Virus record (IMG/VR): IMGVR_UViG_3300020580_000001
Coordinates: 18,781-82,780 of that record
Direction: 5' to 3' (one strand)
Length of the DNA stretch: 64,000 nt
Origin: a virus
In this document: one piece after another, positions 54,866 to 59,508 of the stretch
Numbering within the stretch: the first letter of the stretch is position 1
Layout of the letters: every line of letters begins with the position of its first letter
Program-made: the position numbers and the translations under genes
Notes under the pieces: model-generated
What the model saw: only the letters and a program-made list of their open reading frames with translations
Told to the model about the DNA's origin: nothing
Database searches by the model: none

Positions 54866-55354
54866 TTACACTGGCGGGACGGCTTGCGGCGTGAAAACCG
54901 CATCGACAACATCCAGGGTGATGGCTTTTGGCGTGAGATCCATAACGATGTCGACCATCAACGCGAATGAGGTCAGCGCCGAAGTGTCGGTTACTGTGAC
55001 GGTAAGGCCGGAAGCCAGCTTAACCATTGGGGTGAGAATCAAAGCAACGGCGCCGGCCATTGGGCCGGATGGCATTGTGCCAATCGTGGCCGTTAATTTG
55101 GTGCCATCGCTAGAGAGCGCAGAAAAAATATCACCGACAGGAGCCGGAACCACGACGCCAGACGCATCGGTTACGTGGATTGCAATTGCAGCAACGGTAT
55201 CGTCCGCAAGCTCGAAATTCGCCATGAGGTTTCCATTTCTTGTGATGATTGGGAGCGCCAACACGATATGTGCTGGTTTATTCGTGGTGGTCAGAAGCGC
55301 TACGATCTTGTCGAGACTAGCGAGAAGCGCCGCCGCGAATTGCTCGACGGTCAT
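54866..55354 (-). CDS. hypothetical beta-rich (Ig-like) protein
   Basis: First ORF of the minus-strand fibre block; possible internal start at MANFEL. Confidence 0.55.
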   Translation of the reverse strand: MTVEQFAAALLASLDKIVALLTTTNKPAHIVLALPIITRNGNLMANFELADDTVAAIAIHVTDASGVVVPAPVGDIFSALSSDGTKLTATIGTMPSGPMAGAVALILTPMVKLASGLTVTVTDTSALTSFALMVDIVMDLTPKAITLDVVDAVFTPQAVPPV

Positions 55355-55414
55355 GGGCTAACTCGCAATTTAATGATTTACAAACGATAATCTGTTGGCG
55401 TATATAGGCTTATA

Positions 55415-55618
55415 ATGACACCGGAATCTCTAAGAGCCTGGCGGGAGCGTATGCGCTGGTCACAGGCGAATGCAGCGGATGCCCTCGGCCTGTCGGCCGT
55501 TGGCTACCGTGACTATGAAAAGGGCAAGCCTCTCAAGGGAGCAAAACCGCGGTCAATCCCAAAAACCGTCGCGCTTGCCTGCGCCGCAATCACGCATCGA
55601 ATACCGCCAGAGGAATAA
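55415..55618 (+). CDS. XRE-family HTH regulator
   Basis: MTPE.LR.WR..M.WSQ..AA.ALGLS......YE.G....IP..VALAC.A. Confidence 0.85.
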   Translation: MTPESLRAWRERMRWSQANAADALGLSAVGYRDYEKGKPLKGAKPRSIPKTVALACAAITHRIPPEE

Positions 55619-55682
55619 GGCTTATGGTCAAGTTTATGTTACATAAAGTGATAATTAATTTGTAGAAATATGCAATTACCTC

Positions 55683-55711
55683 TTGACTTCCTGCAACTAA
55701 TGTCCTATATT
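55683..55711 (+). promoter_or_regulatory. sigma70-type early promoter
   Basis: TTGACT, 17-nt spacer, TATATT; AT-rich upstream region. Confidence 0.75.
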
Positions 55712-55833
55712 GTGATTATAGACAGAGACGAGCCCGGGCTTCCGGCTAAAGGAGCAAAAACCCCAACTGAGGCCGGTAAGACAGGCCCAGAGAGCCCCGC
55801 AAAAGCTAAGAAGCGAGAAGCGAGAGAAAGAAA

Positions 55834-56080
55834 CAAGCTTTGCTAGGCCGCCAAGCTATGGAGGAGAACGAAAATGGCATTCACCGGAACATCCAAGGGA
55901 AAACTAGAGCCCTTAACTCACGAAGGAAAAATCATCAGATATACGAGGAAGCTTGCGGAAGCCCGCAACAACAACAAACCGGAAATGATCGCGCTGTTCG
56001 AGAGACAGCTCGCCGAACTTACAAGCCGCGAAAAGATCAAAAGCAAATGAGCCCAACCCACGGCGGCCTAGCAAAGCTTG
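55834..56080. repeat. perfect 19-bp inverted repeat flanking the first early gene
   Basis: CAAGCTTTGCTAGGCCGCC (55834-55852) / GGCGGCCTAGCAAAGCTTG (56062-56080). Confidence 0.9.
55874..56050 (+). CDS. early hypothetical protein (58 aa)
   Basis: SD GGAGGAG; MAFTGTSKGKLEPLTHEGKIIRYTRKLAEARNNNKPEMIALFERQLAELTSREKIKSK; not in the ORF track. Confidence 0.7.
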   Translation: MAFTGTSKGKLEPLTHEGKIIRYTRKLAEARNNNKPEMIALFERQLAELTSREKIKSK

Positions 56081-56128
56081 GATTTCTCAACCAAGCCTAA
56101 CAGTAAGCCAAACTAAGGGAGAACGAAA

Positions 56129-56374
56129 ATGGCTGACTATTACCTGACAACGGACCATTCCGCATCCAGCTATGGCATGCCAGTGCTTGTTGATCCATCA
56201 ACGGGAACGGCATATGGCCCAGCCGATAAATTGCCGGATGATGTTACAAGCGCCCCATCAGCATGGGACTATGTGTGGCGCAAGCAGGATGCTGGCAGAT
56301 ACGCATGGCTCGATGAAGTTAGCAACAATACAGAAGCATCTAATATGGCTGCCAAGTTTTTGGCAATCAAATGA
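56129..56374 (+). CDS. early hypothetical protein
   Basis: Shared RBS motif; LTTDH.ASSYG.PVLV......YGP.D phage motif. Confidence 0.75.
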   Translation: MADYYLTTDHSASSYGMPVLVDPSTGTAYGPADKLPDDVTSAPSAWDYVWRKQDAGRYAWLDEVSNNTEASNMAAKFLAIK

Positions 56375-56440
56375 CCCTTCGAAGCGCGACCTTACGGGGC
56401 CGCGTCACGAAAGGCCAAGACAAACCAAGGGAGAACGAGA

Positions 56441-56608
56441 ATGACGGAACAAGACGCCCACCGAGCCGTCGAATGGTACAAAGAACATAAACGGCATGTT
56501 GAACGGCTAATCAAAGAAGCGCGTGGAAAATTTGAACCAAGTGGCTCCGATGCTATACGGCCGGAGCTTTGGAAAGCAGAACATTGGTTCTGGTTCCTGA
56601 CCAAATGA
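56441..56608 (+). CDS. early hypothetical protein (55 aa)
   Basis: Shared RBS motif; MTEQDAHRAVEWYKEHKRHVERLIKEARGKFEPSGSDAIRPELWKAEHWFWFLTK; not in the ORF track. Confidence 0.7.
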   Translation: MTEQDAHRAVEWYKEHKRHVERLIKEARGKFEPSGSDAIRPELWKAEHWFWFLTK

Positions 56609-56642
56609 CCCTTCCCCATCGGGGCTTAACCTCCCCGATCCA

Positions 56643-56714
56643 GAAGCGCCAGACGGAGCTAAGACAACATACCGTCTGTCTGGGTTGCCCAGGGCTTTAG
56701 ACTGGTGCTTCACC
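56643..56714 (+). ncRNA. structured repeat copy 1 (divergent)
   Basis: GAAGCGCCAG...CTGGTGCTTC-ACC, 72 nt, preceded by a TGACCCTTC hairpin. Confidence 0.5.
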
Positions 56715-56752
56715 TTCCCCGCGCCTCGGGGTTTCAGGGGCAGAGAACGAAA

Positions 56753-57001
56753 ATGGTAAATCATCCAAATAGAAGCAGCCAATTTAAGTCTCAACGGGAA
56801 CCTGAATTCCATCTCCAGCACTTCGGTCCTTGCGAGCCACATTGGCCTAAAGGCGGCTGGTCTATTTACCAAATCACGGGGGATGAAATAGCCCAGCGCA
56901 TCACATTCGATATAACCGGAAAGGTAGTTCGCCGCGATTCTTGGTGTGGCTATATCGGCATTTTCGAAACGTTGCCGGAAGTCATGGAGGCTATGCAATG
57001 A
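56753..57001 (+). CDS. early hypothetical protein
   Basis: Shared RBS motif; MVNHPNRS N-terminus seen in small phage proteins. Confidence 0.7.
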   Translation: MVNHPNRSSQFKSQREPEFHLQHFGPCEPHWPKGGWSIYQITGDEIAQRITFDITGKVVRRDSWCGYIGIFETLPEVMEAMQ

Positions 57002-57306
57002 CCCAGTTTCACGAAGGCCAGGATGTAGAGGTTTGGAAAGAAGTCCGCACTCGCGGAACTGACCTTCACCAAAACTACGTTCGCCGCTGGTGCAAGGCGA
57101 AGATCGTTTATGCGCTAAAAGAAACACCAAGATATCTTGTCCAATTCCCAGAGCCCAACGGCAAATATGACGTTGACGGAACCCGCGCCGTATTCGACGC
57201 GGAGCATATCCGGGCGGTAGAGCGTGACATCGGCTTGCCTGATTATGCCCTCGATGATCGCCAATGGTGCGACCGGTGGAATAGGCGGATAGGGGAAACC
57301 ACATGA
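56998..57306 (+). CDS. Tudor/Agenet-like mini-protein, paralogue 1
   Basis: MTQFHEGQDVEV..WCKAKIV..VQFP..RAVFDAEHIR. Confidence 0.7.
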   Translation: MTQFHEGQDVEVWKEVRTRGTDLHQNYVRRWCKAKIVYALKETPRYLVQFPEPNGKYDVDGTRAVFDAEHIRAVERDIGLPDYALDDRQWCDRWNRRIGETT

Positions 57307-57386
57307 CCCGCCGTTCAATCGAGTCCATCTACTTGTTGCCAACAAAAGACTGACCCTTCGACACTGGCGGTTTCGGCCGCCAGCAC

Positions 57387-57475
57387 GAAGCGCCAGAAAT
57401 GGAGCCGCACGCGAAGCCTGCAACGGCTAGCTCACATGGCTTAAATGCGCGGATAGTGGCCCGCGCCGCTTCACC
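57387..57475 (+). ncRNA. structured repeat copy 2
   Basis: GAAGCGCCAGAAATGGAGC..AATGCGCGGATA..GCCCGCGCCGCTTCACC, 89 nt. Confidence 0.65.
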
Positions 57476-57499
57476 TAAACACAACAAAAAGGAAACCTA

Positions 57500-57865
57500 A
57501 TGCGTAAAATACTTCTTGCGACACTAACATTCACGGCCTTGGCTTTTCCAGCATTGGCCAAGAATACCATGGTTATGGTTAATCTATCCGGCGTCGTCAA
57601 ATCTTCCGGCGCCAATGCAGCATCAACAATAGTTAATGTTGGGGTTGTGGATCTTATCGCGACCGGCAACCACGTTGACGTCTATAATCCTATTACTCAC
57701 TCCTTGATACCAGCCCTTAGCGGCGTTGTCGTGCCTCTTGGAACGATATCCGATATGGTGTTTAATGCTCCTGCATTTTTAACGGTTCAAGGCGCGGGTC
57801 CGTTTGCGGTAACTATCGATTACTCGACAGTTCCGCCAACTGTTGGACCGGCGGTTTCGCTCTAA
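57500..57865 (+). CDS. secreted beta-rich protein
   Basis: Signal peptide MRKILLATLTFTALAFPALA; SD AAGGA. Confidence 0.7.
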   Translation: MRKILLATLTFTALAFPALAKNTMVMVNLSGVVKSSGANAASTIVNVGVVDLIATGNHVDVYNPITHSLIPALSGVVVPLGTISDMVFNAPAFLTVQGAGPFAVTIDYSTVPPTVGPAVSL

Positions 57866-57908
57866 TTTGACATTTCTTCTGCGGACCGGTGCAAGCCAGC
57901 CCGCACGA

Positions 57909-57979
57909 GAAGCGCCAGAAATGGAGCTGTCTGCCAATGGCGGAAGAATGCGCGGATATAACGCCCGCACCGCTTCACC
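57909..57979 (+). ncRNA. structured repeat copy 3
   Basis: GAAGCGCCAGAAATGGAGC..AATGCGCGGATA..GCCCGCACCGCTTCACC, 71 nt. Confidence 0.65.
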
Positions 57980-57998
57980 TAAATCAGGAGGAATGAAC

Positions 57999-58205
57999 AT
58001 GACCCAGTTTAACGAAGGCCAAGAAGTTGAGGTCTTAACCGACCCAGCATTCCCGCGCGGGACGTTTGCATGGCGCAAGGCGAAGATCGTCGCGCCGACC
58101 ATGCACACACATCGCGAACTTTATACCGTCCAATTCCCCGACAACTCCCGCGCCGTGTTCGACGCGGCTCATATACGGAGCACACCATTCTGGAGCACAC
58201 CATGA
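57999..58205 (+). CDS. Tudor/Agenet-like mini-protein, paralogue 2
   Basis: SD AGGAGG; MTQFNEGQEVEV..WRKAKIV..VQFPD.SRAVFDAAHIR. Confidence 0.7.
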   Translation: MTQFNEGQEVEVLTDPAFPRGTFAWRKAKIVAPTMHTHRELYTVQFPDNSRAVFDAAHIRSTPFWSTP

Positions 58206-58564
58206 CCCAATTTCACAAAGGCCAGGAGGTTGAGGTTTTCAAGCCGTACTTTGACGAAACCCGCACGATTGAGGCGTCAACACGATGCGACTGGCGCGGC
58301 GCAAAAATCGTGGAGATAGGATTGCGCAGCTACCCGGTGCTGGGCAAAATGGATAGGCAATGGAAGCCTGCCAAGTTCGTTGTCCAATTCCCAGACGGCT
58401 CACGCGCCGTGTTCGATGCGGAGCATGTCCGCTTATCGAAAGAGCAAGTCGAGCAAGAGTTGGCCGACAATGGACAGCGATTCGTTGACTCGATGAGCCG
58501 CGCCAAGAAAGTCGCACACGATCTTGGCGAAGGACTCATGGGCCGCGGAAAATATGCAGACTGA
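58202..58564 (+). CDS. Tudor/Agenet-like mini-protein, paralogue 3
   Basis: MTQFHKGQEVEV..WRGAKIV..VQFPDGSRAVFDAEHVR. Confidence 0.7.
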   Translation: MTQFHKGQEVEVFKPYFDETRTIEASTRCDWRGAKIVEIGLRSYPVLGKMDRQWKPAKFVVQFPDGSRAVFDAEHVRLSKEQVEQELADNGQRFVDSMSRAKKVAHDLGEGLMGRGKYAD

Positions 58565-58616
58565 CCCTTCGGCATGTAGCGAGCCTGACCAGGCAGGCGT
58601 GAGAGCGCTACATTGC

Positions 58617-58691
58617 GAAGCGCCAGAAATGGGGCCGAGGCCTCGACAAATGCGCGGATACACCAGCGAGGATGGCCCGCGACGCTTCACC
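58617..58691 (+). ncRNA. structured repeat copy 4
   Basis: GAAGCGCCAGAAATGGGGC..AATGCGCGGATA..GCCCGCGACGCTTCACC, 75 nt. Confidence 0.65.
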
Positions 58692-58774
58692 CCACCGGAC
58701 CGCTGCAATATGCGGACACCGCATGCTGCACTGCTAGCCGCGTTGCAGCGGTCCGGAATTAAAAAGGAGGATTA

Positions 58775-58987
58775 ATGCAACAGGCAGTTACACGCCTAAA
58801 GGCCGGAACGCTCGCGGCCACCACCGAAACCATCGAGCTAAACGACGTCGAGACGGACCTGGAAAAGGCCCGCTTCGATCACCAGGCCAAGCTTTTTGCG
58901 CTCCAGCAGGAGTTCAACGGAAAGCGCGACAAGCTACGGCAGGAATACCACGAACGTGTTCAGGCAATTACGGGAGATTCAGCGTAA
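58775..58987 (+). CDS. small coiled-coil protein
   Basis: SD AAGGAGG; helical charged sequence. Confidence 0.7.
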   Translation: MQQAVTRLKAGTLAATTETIELNDVETDLEKARFDHQAKLFALQQEFNGKRDKLRQEYHERVQAITGDSA

Positions 58988-59098
58988 TTGACTGGAGATC
59001 TTTGGGTAGATTACTTGCCGCAACGCCTCATCTTATACGCCGCGGCTTTTTGTATTGGCGCAGCGTTGACGGCAATTTATTTTCTCTGGCATAATTAA
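58988..59098 (+). CDS. possible 36-aa single-TM peptide
   Basis: TTG directly after the upstream stop; MTGDLWVDYLPQRLILYAAAFCIGAALTAIYFLWHN. Confidence 0.4.
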   Translation: MTGDLWVDYLPQRLILYAAAFCIGAALTAIYFLWHN

Positions 59099-59103
59099 CT
59101 CAG

Positions 59104-59131
59104 CGGGACGACGTTCACAGCGTCGCCCCGC
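59104..59131. terminator. GC-rich hairpin at the end of the early operon
   Basis: GCGGGACGACG-TTCACAG-CGTCGCCCCGC between convergent genes. Confidence 0.5.
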
Positions 59132-59151
59132 CTATATGGCACCTACTTGAA

Positions 59152-59397
59152 TTACCGCGAAAGCTTACGAAAGTCAAACGGCTCTTTCTCAAGCCGCGCC
59201 TCGACATTCGCATCAGAAGCGCCAGCTTGTCCGAGGTAATGCGCCAATATTCCATCTTGCATACAGCCAGGACCTTCGGCTTCGATGATCTTAAGCGAAT
59301 CGCGCATGGCTAAATTGAGAATATGCCGCTCTTCTCGCGTAAGGTGCCGTGCCGCTACCATTTCAAGACCATCCATCCAATCAAGATAATAGCCCAA
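59152..59397 (-). CDS. hypothetical protein
   Basis: 81-aa ORF. Confidence 0.45.
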   Translation of the reverse strand: MGYYLDWMDGLEMVAARHLTREERHILNLAMRDSLKIIEAEGPGCMQDGILAHYLGQAGASDANVEARLEKEPFDFRKLSR

Positions 59398-59508
59398 AAT
59401 ATGTTTGAAGTCAATAACTTGTCTTGTAGTTTCTCAATCTGTGCATTATTATGAGAGATATCGGAGGCAAGTCGGTCAGTGCGATTCACAAGAGAAGTGC
59501 CAAGCGCA

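Follow-up and report, generated by a model that had tools for sequence, protein, structure and literature searches.

A pseudoknotted intercistronic RNA family in the early operons of uncultured soil phages and its possible role at gene boundaries

The window analysed here is a stretch of 64,000 nucleotides, bases 18781-82780 of an 82,780-bp IMG/VR virus record (IMGVR_UViG_3300020580_000001) with direct terminal repeats, and the sequencing runs that contain it are soil metagenomes. The minus strand encodes portal, terminase and capsid proteins; the plus strand carries an operon of small ORFan genes, headed by a divergent repressor/Cro-like pair and a promoter-like site. An earlier note on this DNA, made from the sequence alone, described four intergenic copies of a structured, tRNA-sized repeat in this early operon, and all repeat copies are indeed located inside it. 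Our results show that copies 2-4 belong to a structured RNA family of uncultured soil phages that is uncatalogued when set against Rfam 15. The fold of its members (hereafter units) and their placement between open reading frames (ORFs) suggest a role at the boundaries of early genes. The features of the operon are collected in Table 1.

Searching with a covariance model (R1) built from 24 units, we recovered all four stretches: cmsearch returned copies 2-4 at exactly the positions that had been claimed for them, and copy 1 weakly, with a score of 16.1 bits (E 0.055) that places it outside the canonical family. The proposal that the four copies form one family consequently stands for copies 2-4 but not for copy 1, which has the closing stem GAAGCGCCAG/CTGGTGCTTC in common with them and a different interior. 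As had been noted, copies 2-4 share the blocks GAAGCG-CCAGAAATGG-RGC, AATGCGCGGATA and GCCCGC-NN-CGCTTCACC, with spacing that varies in length and frame. The A-to-B block distances are 57, 38 and 32 nt, and the blocks therefore fall in different reading frames, in agreement with conservation at the nucleotide level. The 11-mer GAAGCGCCAGA has five exact occurrences on the plus strand of the window, where ∼0.03 would be expected by chance, and AATGCGCGGATA has three exact occurrences on that strand, against an expectation of ∼0.01 (both expectations are estimates for 64 kb and both strands). All four window copies are closed by a GAAGCG that pairs with CGCTTC (in copy 1, TGCTTC), and ACC comes directly behind each copy, as described in the earlier note; across the family, however, this ending is not constant (ACC in 17, ACT in 14 and ACA in 6 of 49 units). 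Model R1 found no further units in the rest of this phage genome beyond the early operon. It left unscored an exact GAAGCGCCAGA at 46-56, far from the operon and beside an inverted CGCTTC, and a degenerate remnant (GAAGCGCCAGC ... AATGCGCCAATA) at 59216-59249, just beyond the hairpin that ends the operon.

A two-block pattern had hits in 11 further IMG/VR contigs, of which one was due to chance, and in 40 metagenome contigs. With model R1 we obtained 54 matches at E<=1e-4 in 44 sources, corresponding to ∼32 contigs besides the window's own once twice-filed records had been removed. These sources are uncultured IMG/VR and soil-metagenome contigs, and the units in them are 57-116 nt long. Five related records carry 1-4 units each, mostly clustered within ∼1.5 kb. 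Scanning IMG/VR with the 16-mer C block gave mostly chance matches, the only new true members being those at loci L027, L041 and L043. A pattern scan of 185,579 species genomes yielded 10 matches, approximately the number expected by chance (estimate), none of which had P1 (the closing stem) or the C block, and no host or prophage carrying a unit was found among these genomes. The operon had no blastn match among cultured phage genomes, and a literature search by sequence strings returned primers only. The earlier note had not recognised the copies as a known RNA family, and this was upheld: nothing in the window reached the gathering score of an Rfam 15 family, and when the search was relaxed to E<=10 and permissive filters no unit was matched, the sole hit being a spurious microRNA match on the minus strand at 58690-58763.

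Base pairs were counted, for a structure that we specified, in a MAFFT alignment of 49 distinct units. The 6-bp closing stem P1 (GAAGCG/CGCUUC) is 99% paired and shows changes on both sides in four of its six pairs (GGGGUG/CACCCC, CGAGCG/CGCUCG), while the 5-bp helix P4 (CGCGG/CCGCG) is 98% paired, with the compensated variants CGAGG/CCUCG, CGUGG/CCACG and UGCGG/CCGCA. P1 continues directly into P2 (CCA/UGG, 3 bp), which is invariant. With the exception of the two most degenerate, the 54 matches have a GNRA tetraloop on P2 or, in one case, GAAAA (GAAA 48; GUAA, GCAA, GUGA and GAAAA 1 each). A P2 scan in which any two loop bases were allowed gave five new matches (L101-L105), all of them attributable to chance. 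Strongly conserved unpaired bases are AAAUG, the AU that opens the P4 loop, and a single A before the P1 3' strand.

A further helix, which is absent from the earlier note and newly recognised in this analysis, is a pseudoknot of 2-3 bp between G-C-N, located past the purine that follows P2, and the N-G-C that ends the P4 loop directly 5' of the P4 3' strand. In the alignment 82% of its cells are paired, and both-side changes are seen at all three pairs (GG/CC and AC/GU; the third pair as CG, GC, AU and UA). Pair 2 can form in 46 of 51 units, compared with 41.0 expected, a value reached in 4 of 5000 shuffles; pair 3 can form in 32 of 51 units, compared with 20.9 expected (6 of 5000 shuffles as high). 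Within the window the possible pseudoknot pairs number five in copy 2, two in copy 3 and four in copy 4. Since the pseudoknot connects bases adjacent to P2 with the end of the P4 loop, the unit consists of two stacked helices and not of a cloverleaf: P1 stacks on P2, the pseudoknot helix is contiguous with P4, and single bases connect the two stacks (an R behind P2, and an A or C ahead of the P1 3' strand). Thus the earlier idea of a phage RNA family whose scaffold is constant and whose intervening segments vary is substantiated by the compensatory changes in P1, P4 and the pseudoknot.

The variable inserts occur at two places, behind the pseudoknot strand and within the P4 loop, and where one is short the other is often long. 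They had been described as hairpins, which is correct for the arm of copy 3 (z -3.1) but not for copy 4, in which CGAG/CTCG leaves a 2-nt loop and cannot form as drawn. For the family as a whole the variable segment has a mean z of -0.85, with 14 of 35 below -1, so that a clear hairpin is present in part of the units. A variable arm closed by GC and the GC of AAUGC was considered and rejected, as units with AAAUA-UGCGG retain the 5' GC. Complements of the variable arms elsewhere in the window amount to 11-13-nt matches only, about what chance would give (estimate). Of 52 units, 13 have perfect palindromes of at least 8 nt in their variable arms; 4.1 were expected, and none of 500 shuffles gave more than 10. 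At a threshold of at least 6 nt the enrichment is not significant (24 vs 16.5). Examples of arm palindromes are found at 58637-58646 and 57427-57432 of the window and in L011, L051, L075 and L086; the homologous arms of L011 and L051 differ, yet each retains an 8-nt palindrome (GGCCGGCC vs GCGGCCGC). A template-switch origin, dimerisation or a DNA-level signal are possible sources of these palindromes.

Most units are preceded by the motif TGAC-NN-TTCG. In ∼22 units its TGA is the stop codon of the upstream ORF, which ends 31-55 nt before the unit; window junctions 1, 2, 3 and 5 are of this type. The motif opens a two-tier hairpin, hp1, composed of a lower stem of 5-7 bp ((CG)UUUCG or CCCUUCG with CGAAG(CG)), a 2x2 internal loop, and an upper stem of 7-10 bp whose sequence varies from phage to phage. 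Among 34 distinct versions of hp1 the mean z is -3.5, and 33 of them lie below -2. When hp1 segments were folded alone, 32 of the 34 formed the lower stem, i.e. paired with the P1 5' strand. Because the 3' strand of this lower stem is the 5' strand of P1, the base of hp1 and P1 are mutually exclusive. When copy 2 was folded together with its whole intergenic region, P1 was preferred over the hp1 base. In three units with a CGAGCG P1 the stop-codon motif is altered too and one pair is compensated, possibly as the result of a single common event.

Following hp1 is hp2, a simpler conserved hairpin (GAAGCGCCA-loop-UGGCGCUUC), whose stem sequence is conserved and covaries only rarely. At many junctions of the same phages a plain hairpin with the stem of the unit is found in its stead (GAAGCG-CCA-CGCTTC, GAAGCGCCAAACGCTTC and similar), and other junctions carry a different payload closed by GAAGCGCCAG/CTGGCGCTTC. 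Copy 1 is among the latter; no second copy of its payload was found, and a scan for its scaffold with any payload produced one match, inside a coding region. Upstream of one gene, whose product begins MTIRI, a plain hairpin is present in L011, a degenerate unit in L013, and another payload in L007. Given this exchange at a single gene, the canonical unit can be described as GAAGCGCCA-GAAA-UGGCGCUUC with ∼40-90 nt placed between UGG and CGCUUC. Judged from these comparisons, the unit is an optional addition to hp2 in a two-hairpin junction module that is simpler and found more widely, which was missed in the earlier note.

The units are oriented in the sense of their flanking ORFs in every case, and in ∼30 of 54 an ORF of 30 codons or more has its start codon 9-30 nt past the unit. 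Tandem units were found in L003, L008, L013, L027, L051 and L065. The P1 sequences of tandem neighbours differ, as expected if both must fold independently in one transcript and mispairing is selected against. In L027 a promoter-like sequence (TTGACA-17-CATATT) ends 6 nt before the first base of the tandem pair; the unit there would therefore form the base-paired 5' end of the transcript, which hints at a unit working as a 5' cap structure. The junctions are also places where related phages differ in gene content: the mosaic joints of relatives' contigs fall on junction elements (56392>56714, 56411>58565, 56444>56603 and 57993>58562), and the gene order around shared junctions is not the same in L007, L011 and L013.

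On the plus strand of 55200-59400 promoter-like sites were detected at 55683 and 59066 only, and no terminator-like site was detected there, nor between the operon's promoter-like site (55683) and ∼59100. The junction hairpins do not have the form of intrinsic terminators, in which a GC-rich hairpin is followed by a T tract; what follows them is GCGAAGCG or ACC, with no T runs. One soil metatranscriptome contained exact contigs covering 56101-56251 and 57642-57871, as well as relatives' contigs that enter or leave units. These contigs carry no strand information and parts not covered are uninformative, so what they establish is limited to the presence of the region in an RNA library.

Table 1. 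Features of the early operon and its junctions, with positions in the window.
Feature	Position	Strand	Detail
Promoter-like site, TTGACT-17-TATATT	55683..55711	+	10/12 matches; heads the early operon bearing all copies
Junction 1: stop-codon motif TGACCCTTCG and hp1 only; hp2 absent or degenerate	56372..56411	+	TGA 56372-56374 ends ORF 56129-56374
Junction 2: stop-codon motif TGACCCTTC and hp1 (ATCGGGG/CCCCGAT)	56606..56639	+	TGA ends ORF 56441-56608
Copy 1: scaffold hairpin hp2 (GAAGCGCCAG/CTGGTGCTTC) with its own branched payload	56643..56714	+	Minimum free energy -32.3, z -3.8
Junction 3: TGACCCTTCG and two-tier hp1, lower stem CTTCG/CGAAG, upper stem CTGGCGG/CCGCCAG	57351..57390	+	Lower stem overlaps P1 5' strand
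Copy 2, canonical unit	57387..57475	+	68.3 bits
Copy 2 helices	P1 57387-92/57467-72; P2 57393-57402; P4 57448-52/57461-65	+	GAAA loop in P2
Copy 2 pseudoknot	57404-06/57458-60	+	
Copy 2 variable arm	57407-43	+	
Junction 4: hp1-like hairpin (GCGG/CCGC)	57881..57904	+	After TAA 57863-65 and diverged motif TTGACATTTC
Copy 3, canonical unit	57909..57979	+	70.9 bits; start codon 20 nt past unit end
Copy 3 helices	P1 57909-14/57971-76; P2 57915-24; P4 57951-55/57965-69	+	Arm TCTGCC/GGCGGA
Copy 3 pseudoknot	57926-27/57963-64	+	
Junction 5: TGACCCTTCG and two-tier hp1, upper stem CATGTAGCG/CGCTACAT	58562..58620	+	TGA ends third Agenet-like gene
Copy 4, canonical unit	58617..58691	+	67.9 bits
Copy 4 helices	P1 58617-22/58683-88; P2 58623-32; P4 58653-57/58677-81	+	Long P4 loop 58658-76
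Copy 4 pseudoknot	58634-36/58674-76	+	
Second, different conserved long hairpin (CCGGACCGCUGCAA ... UUGCAGCGGUCCGG)	58695..58757	+	Between copy 4 and next gene

Three paralogous small proteins, encoded at 56998-57306, 57999-58205 and 58202-58564, start with MTQF(H/N)(E/K)GQ.VEV, match the Agenet domain weakly (best E 1.6e-4) and have relatives in metagenomes only. The ATGACCC with which their genes start is similar to the TGACCC in the junction motif. The earlier note had raised the possibility that the repeats are ligands of these Tudor-like neighbours. Agenet-like genes are the commonest protein family near units (11 of 35 loci), which is in line with such a link, but the association is loose: in a reciprocal search, four of six other IMG/VR contigs with an Agenet-like gene had no unit within 4 kb, and one of these four had a plain junction only. 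An obligatory partnership between the units and the Agenet/Tudor-like proteins is thus not supported by the reciprocal search. A 16-codon mini-ORF at 57304-57353 shares an ATGA with the stop of the first Agenet-like gene and terminates in the junction 3 TGA, before copy 2; its purpose may perhaps be just to deliver ribosomes to that stop codon.

Some further features of the window were observed. The long hairpin behind copy 4 has a conserved inner CGGACA and CUAGCCGC; with covarying stems it is present at nine loci, following units in eight others (L003, L004, L043, L051, L061, L065, L071 and L074), and it has no match in Rfam. An inverted repeat (GCTTTGCTAGGCCGCC... and its complement) at 55834-55852 and 56062-56080 brackets the first early gene (55874-56050), and one of its arms recurs in L004 ahead of the same translation-initiation leader. 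A near-identical leader, (A/G)GGAGAACGA(A/G)AATG, precedes four early genes (∼55860-55878, 56107-56131, 56420-56443 and 56735-56755), and because these genes have nearly the same leader the ribosome-binding regions are repeated modules too. At 204-276 ARAGORN called a tRNA-like sequence of undetermined type with a two-base "anticodon", which adjoins an ORF (363-1316) with a match to IS1-type DDE transposases. A 273-codon open frame on the minus strand (56507-57328), antisense to small early genes and junction 2, is probably a composition artefact.

We propose as the most likely reading, with about even confidence, that the units are a cis-acting boundary module of early mRNA, acting in stability, insulation or translation-coupled refolding, and doubling as a recombination joint. 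According to this proposal the units would be transcribed within the early polycistronic mRNA. The 3' side of the upstream cistron would be capped and protected by hp1, and the 5' side of the following cistron would be capped and insulated by the compact unit with its pseudoknot lock, which ends 9-30 nt ahead of the start codon and just before the Shine-Dalgarno sequence. The competition between the hp1 base and P1, within ∼10 nt of the stop codon, could permit a refolding that is set by a ribosome terminating at UGA or by a cut between the hairpins, and the repeated junction sequences would serve as joints for the exchange of gene cassettes between phages. Structured intercistronic elements of phage early mRNAs are a known kind, and the present family is uncatalogued in Rfam 15. 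The closest precedents for a boundary module are the RNase III sites of phage T7 and the hammerhead arrays of prophages. In T7 the early polycistronic mRNA contains RNase III sites (R0.3-R1.3), structured with internal loops, that yield hairpin-capped segments. The likeness lies in repeated intercistronic structures of a phage early transcript, here represented by the two-tier hp1 with its 2x2 loop right after the stop codon; unlike the T7 sites, which are unrelated in sequence, the junctions described here have a second, pseudoknotted domain.

Several observations weigh against a boundary module and call for caution. A classical RNase III site takes in about two helical turns of double-stranded RNA (∼20 bp), and the hp1 stems, with 13-17 bp, fall short of this. 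Pairing of the stop-codon motif with the next Shine-Dalgarno sequence was rejected as a family-wide feature, the 31 junctions giving -6.3 kcal/mol against -5.9 and -5.5 kcal/mol for shuffles, although a 10-bp version of this helix is present in copy 3. The strand-asymmetry count of G.U versus A.C (15 vs 12) does not tell the strands apart, and the case for RNA rather than single-stranded DNA therefore draws on orientation, the GNRA loop and position. The RNA evidence consists of contigs without end information, for which DNA carry-over is possible. Moreover, a plain hp2 hairpin suffices at many junctions, and the conservation of AAAUG, AU and A is therefore unexplained by a purely structural cap; it hints at a specific partner.

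The invariant unpaired bases, together with the sufficiency of the plain hairpin, keep two alternatives to the boundary module alive, in which the unit itself would be an aptamer or a new ribozyme. An aptamer, whether a small-molecule (riboswitch-like) site or a protein site (read by an Agenet/Tudor-like protein, or by an N-like factor that recognises the GNRA hairpin), would tune the downstream gene; on our analysis this is unlikely, although it would accommodate much of the architecture. The four-helix junction with its pseudoknot, the invariant junction bases, the variable peripheral inserts and the occasional tandems all agree with it, as do the position of the unit end before the start codon and the frequency of Agenet-like genes among the neighbours. 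The conserved and rarely covarying hp2 stem sequence, in addition, suggests sequence-specific recognition. We take the unit to resemble SAM-I-type junction-plus-pseudoknot aptamers in architecture only, through its loop-junction pseudoknot, invariant junction bases, variable peripheral stems and location in 5' leaders; neither sequence nor model matches to these aptamers were found. What speaks against an aptamer, and against a riboswitch in particular, is that the genes behind units are unrelated ORFans with no common theme, that the operon offers no expression platform such as a terminator, and that sequestration of the Shine-Dalgarno sequence is not general. The unit is also dispensable at equivalent junctions, a plain hairpin replacing it at the same MTIRI gene in relatives (L007, L011, L013), and the Agenet-like genes of four out of six contigs do without it. 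A new class of self-cleaving ribozyme, which would cut the early polycistronic RNA into single-gene messages, seems to us rather improbable. The plain-hairpin junctions in the same positions argue against it, as does the lack of a match between the units and any known self-cleaving ribozyme in Rfam 15 even at E<=10 (hammerhead, twister, twister-sister, pistol, hatchet, HDV, hairpin and glmS). The topology of the unit is, we presume, also unlike the HDV-like, twister, pistol, hatchet and hammerhead folds. The compact, pseudoknotted and highly conserved core with optional variable stems and tandem copies would nevertheless fit a ribozyme, and so would the genomic arrangement, in which clustered copies flank variable genes, some of them a few nt upstream of start codons, in the manner of hammerhead arrays (PMC3088659). 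Perreault et al. suggested that hammerhead arrays in prophages cut long phage transcripts into gene-length messages (PMC3088659). In those clusters, as here, several small structured RNAs close together flank single genes of varying identity; unlike them, the units match no hammerhead or other known ribozyme core.

The remaining alternatives take the element either as an imitation of tRNA or as a matter of DNA. As a tRNA mimic, with P1 and P4 standing for the acceptor and T arms and ACC for the discriminator plus CC, the unit would be cut by RNase P/Z or act as a decoy against tRNA-targeting defences. This was among the suggestions of the earlier note, and it is in our view the least probable of the readings considered. 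Units are of suitable size (∼70 nt, with a range of 57-116 nt), with four helices and a 6-bp closing stem that is followed by A-C in ∼80% of units, and RNase P is able to cut minimal acceptor/T-like helices. The 6+6-bp stack that had been pointed out in copy 2 does exist there, and in 7 of 49 units P4 and P1 adjoin with no bulge between them, giving ∼12 stacked pairs. It is, however, a minority form, as an unpaired A separates the 5-bp P4 from P1 and breaks the stack in the other 42, and the ACC that follows all four window copies is found behind 17 of 49 units in the family as a whole; a conserved CCA-like end is not apparent. Furthermore, P1 and P2 are not separated by a linker, T-loop and D-loop motifs are missing (no TTCRA in the P4 loop), and the P4 loop pairs back to the junction as a pseudoknot. 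Neither ARAGORN, whose only call in the window is the one at 204-276, nor the tRNA, tmRNA and tRNA-like models of Rfam find a unit. An element that works at the DNA level only, as a recombination linker that shuffles cassettes while its RNA fold has no function of its own, appears very improbable as well. The PeSLs (promoter-early stem-loops) of T4-type phages are described as conserved intergenic motifs that flank small non-essential ORFs and between which recombination shuffles genes (PMC2839356, PMC4122927). Mosaic joints and shuffled gene order (L007/L011/L013) coincide with the junction modules in our data in a similar way, the stem sequences are conserved instead of freely covarying, and the longer arm palindromes are enriched. 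A PeSL, however, is a strong sigma-70 promoter plus a terminator stem-loop, whereas the junctions described here have neither consensus and do have a covarying RNA fold. Integron attC sites, which are likewise structured repeats following each small cassette ORF, have in common with the units that the ends are conserved around a variable centre, that the orientation is uniform and that cassettes are shuffled. They differ from the units in that the latter have RNA-type features (GNRA loop, pseudoknot); R/L core sites are not seen in the units, though no scan aimed at them was run, and the gene clusters in the neighbourhood of units include no conspicuous integron-type integrase family. Homology alone would require no compensatory changes in three helices, no pseudoknot, no GNRA loop and no differing P1 sequences in tandems. 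That the units are strictly in sense orientation and keep fixed distances from stop and start codons indicates that they function in the transcript.

It is poorly understood how small, swappable early genes of phages stay expressible after they have moved. Synthetic biology sets insulators ahead of ribosome-binding sites, and a module at each junction that folds by itself, held by a pseudoknot, would be their natural counterpart. The units described here constitute a well-supported new RNA motif, with 54 copies, three covarying helices and a GNRA loop. That the knotted unit is in addition an active RNA, either a new self-cleaving ribozyme or an aptamer (for a host metabolite or alarmone, or for a phage protein) that gates each early cistron, is a tentative but real possibility. 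If self-cleavage, or binding of a ligand or protein, were true of the units, they would represent a new class of ribozyme or aptamer, and the competition between the hp1 base and P1 would tie the folding of the unit to the translation of the upstream gene.

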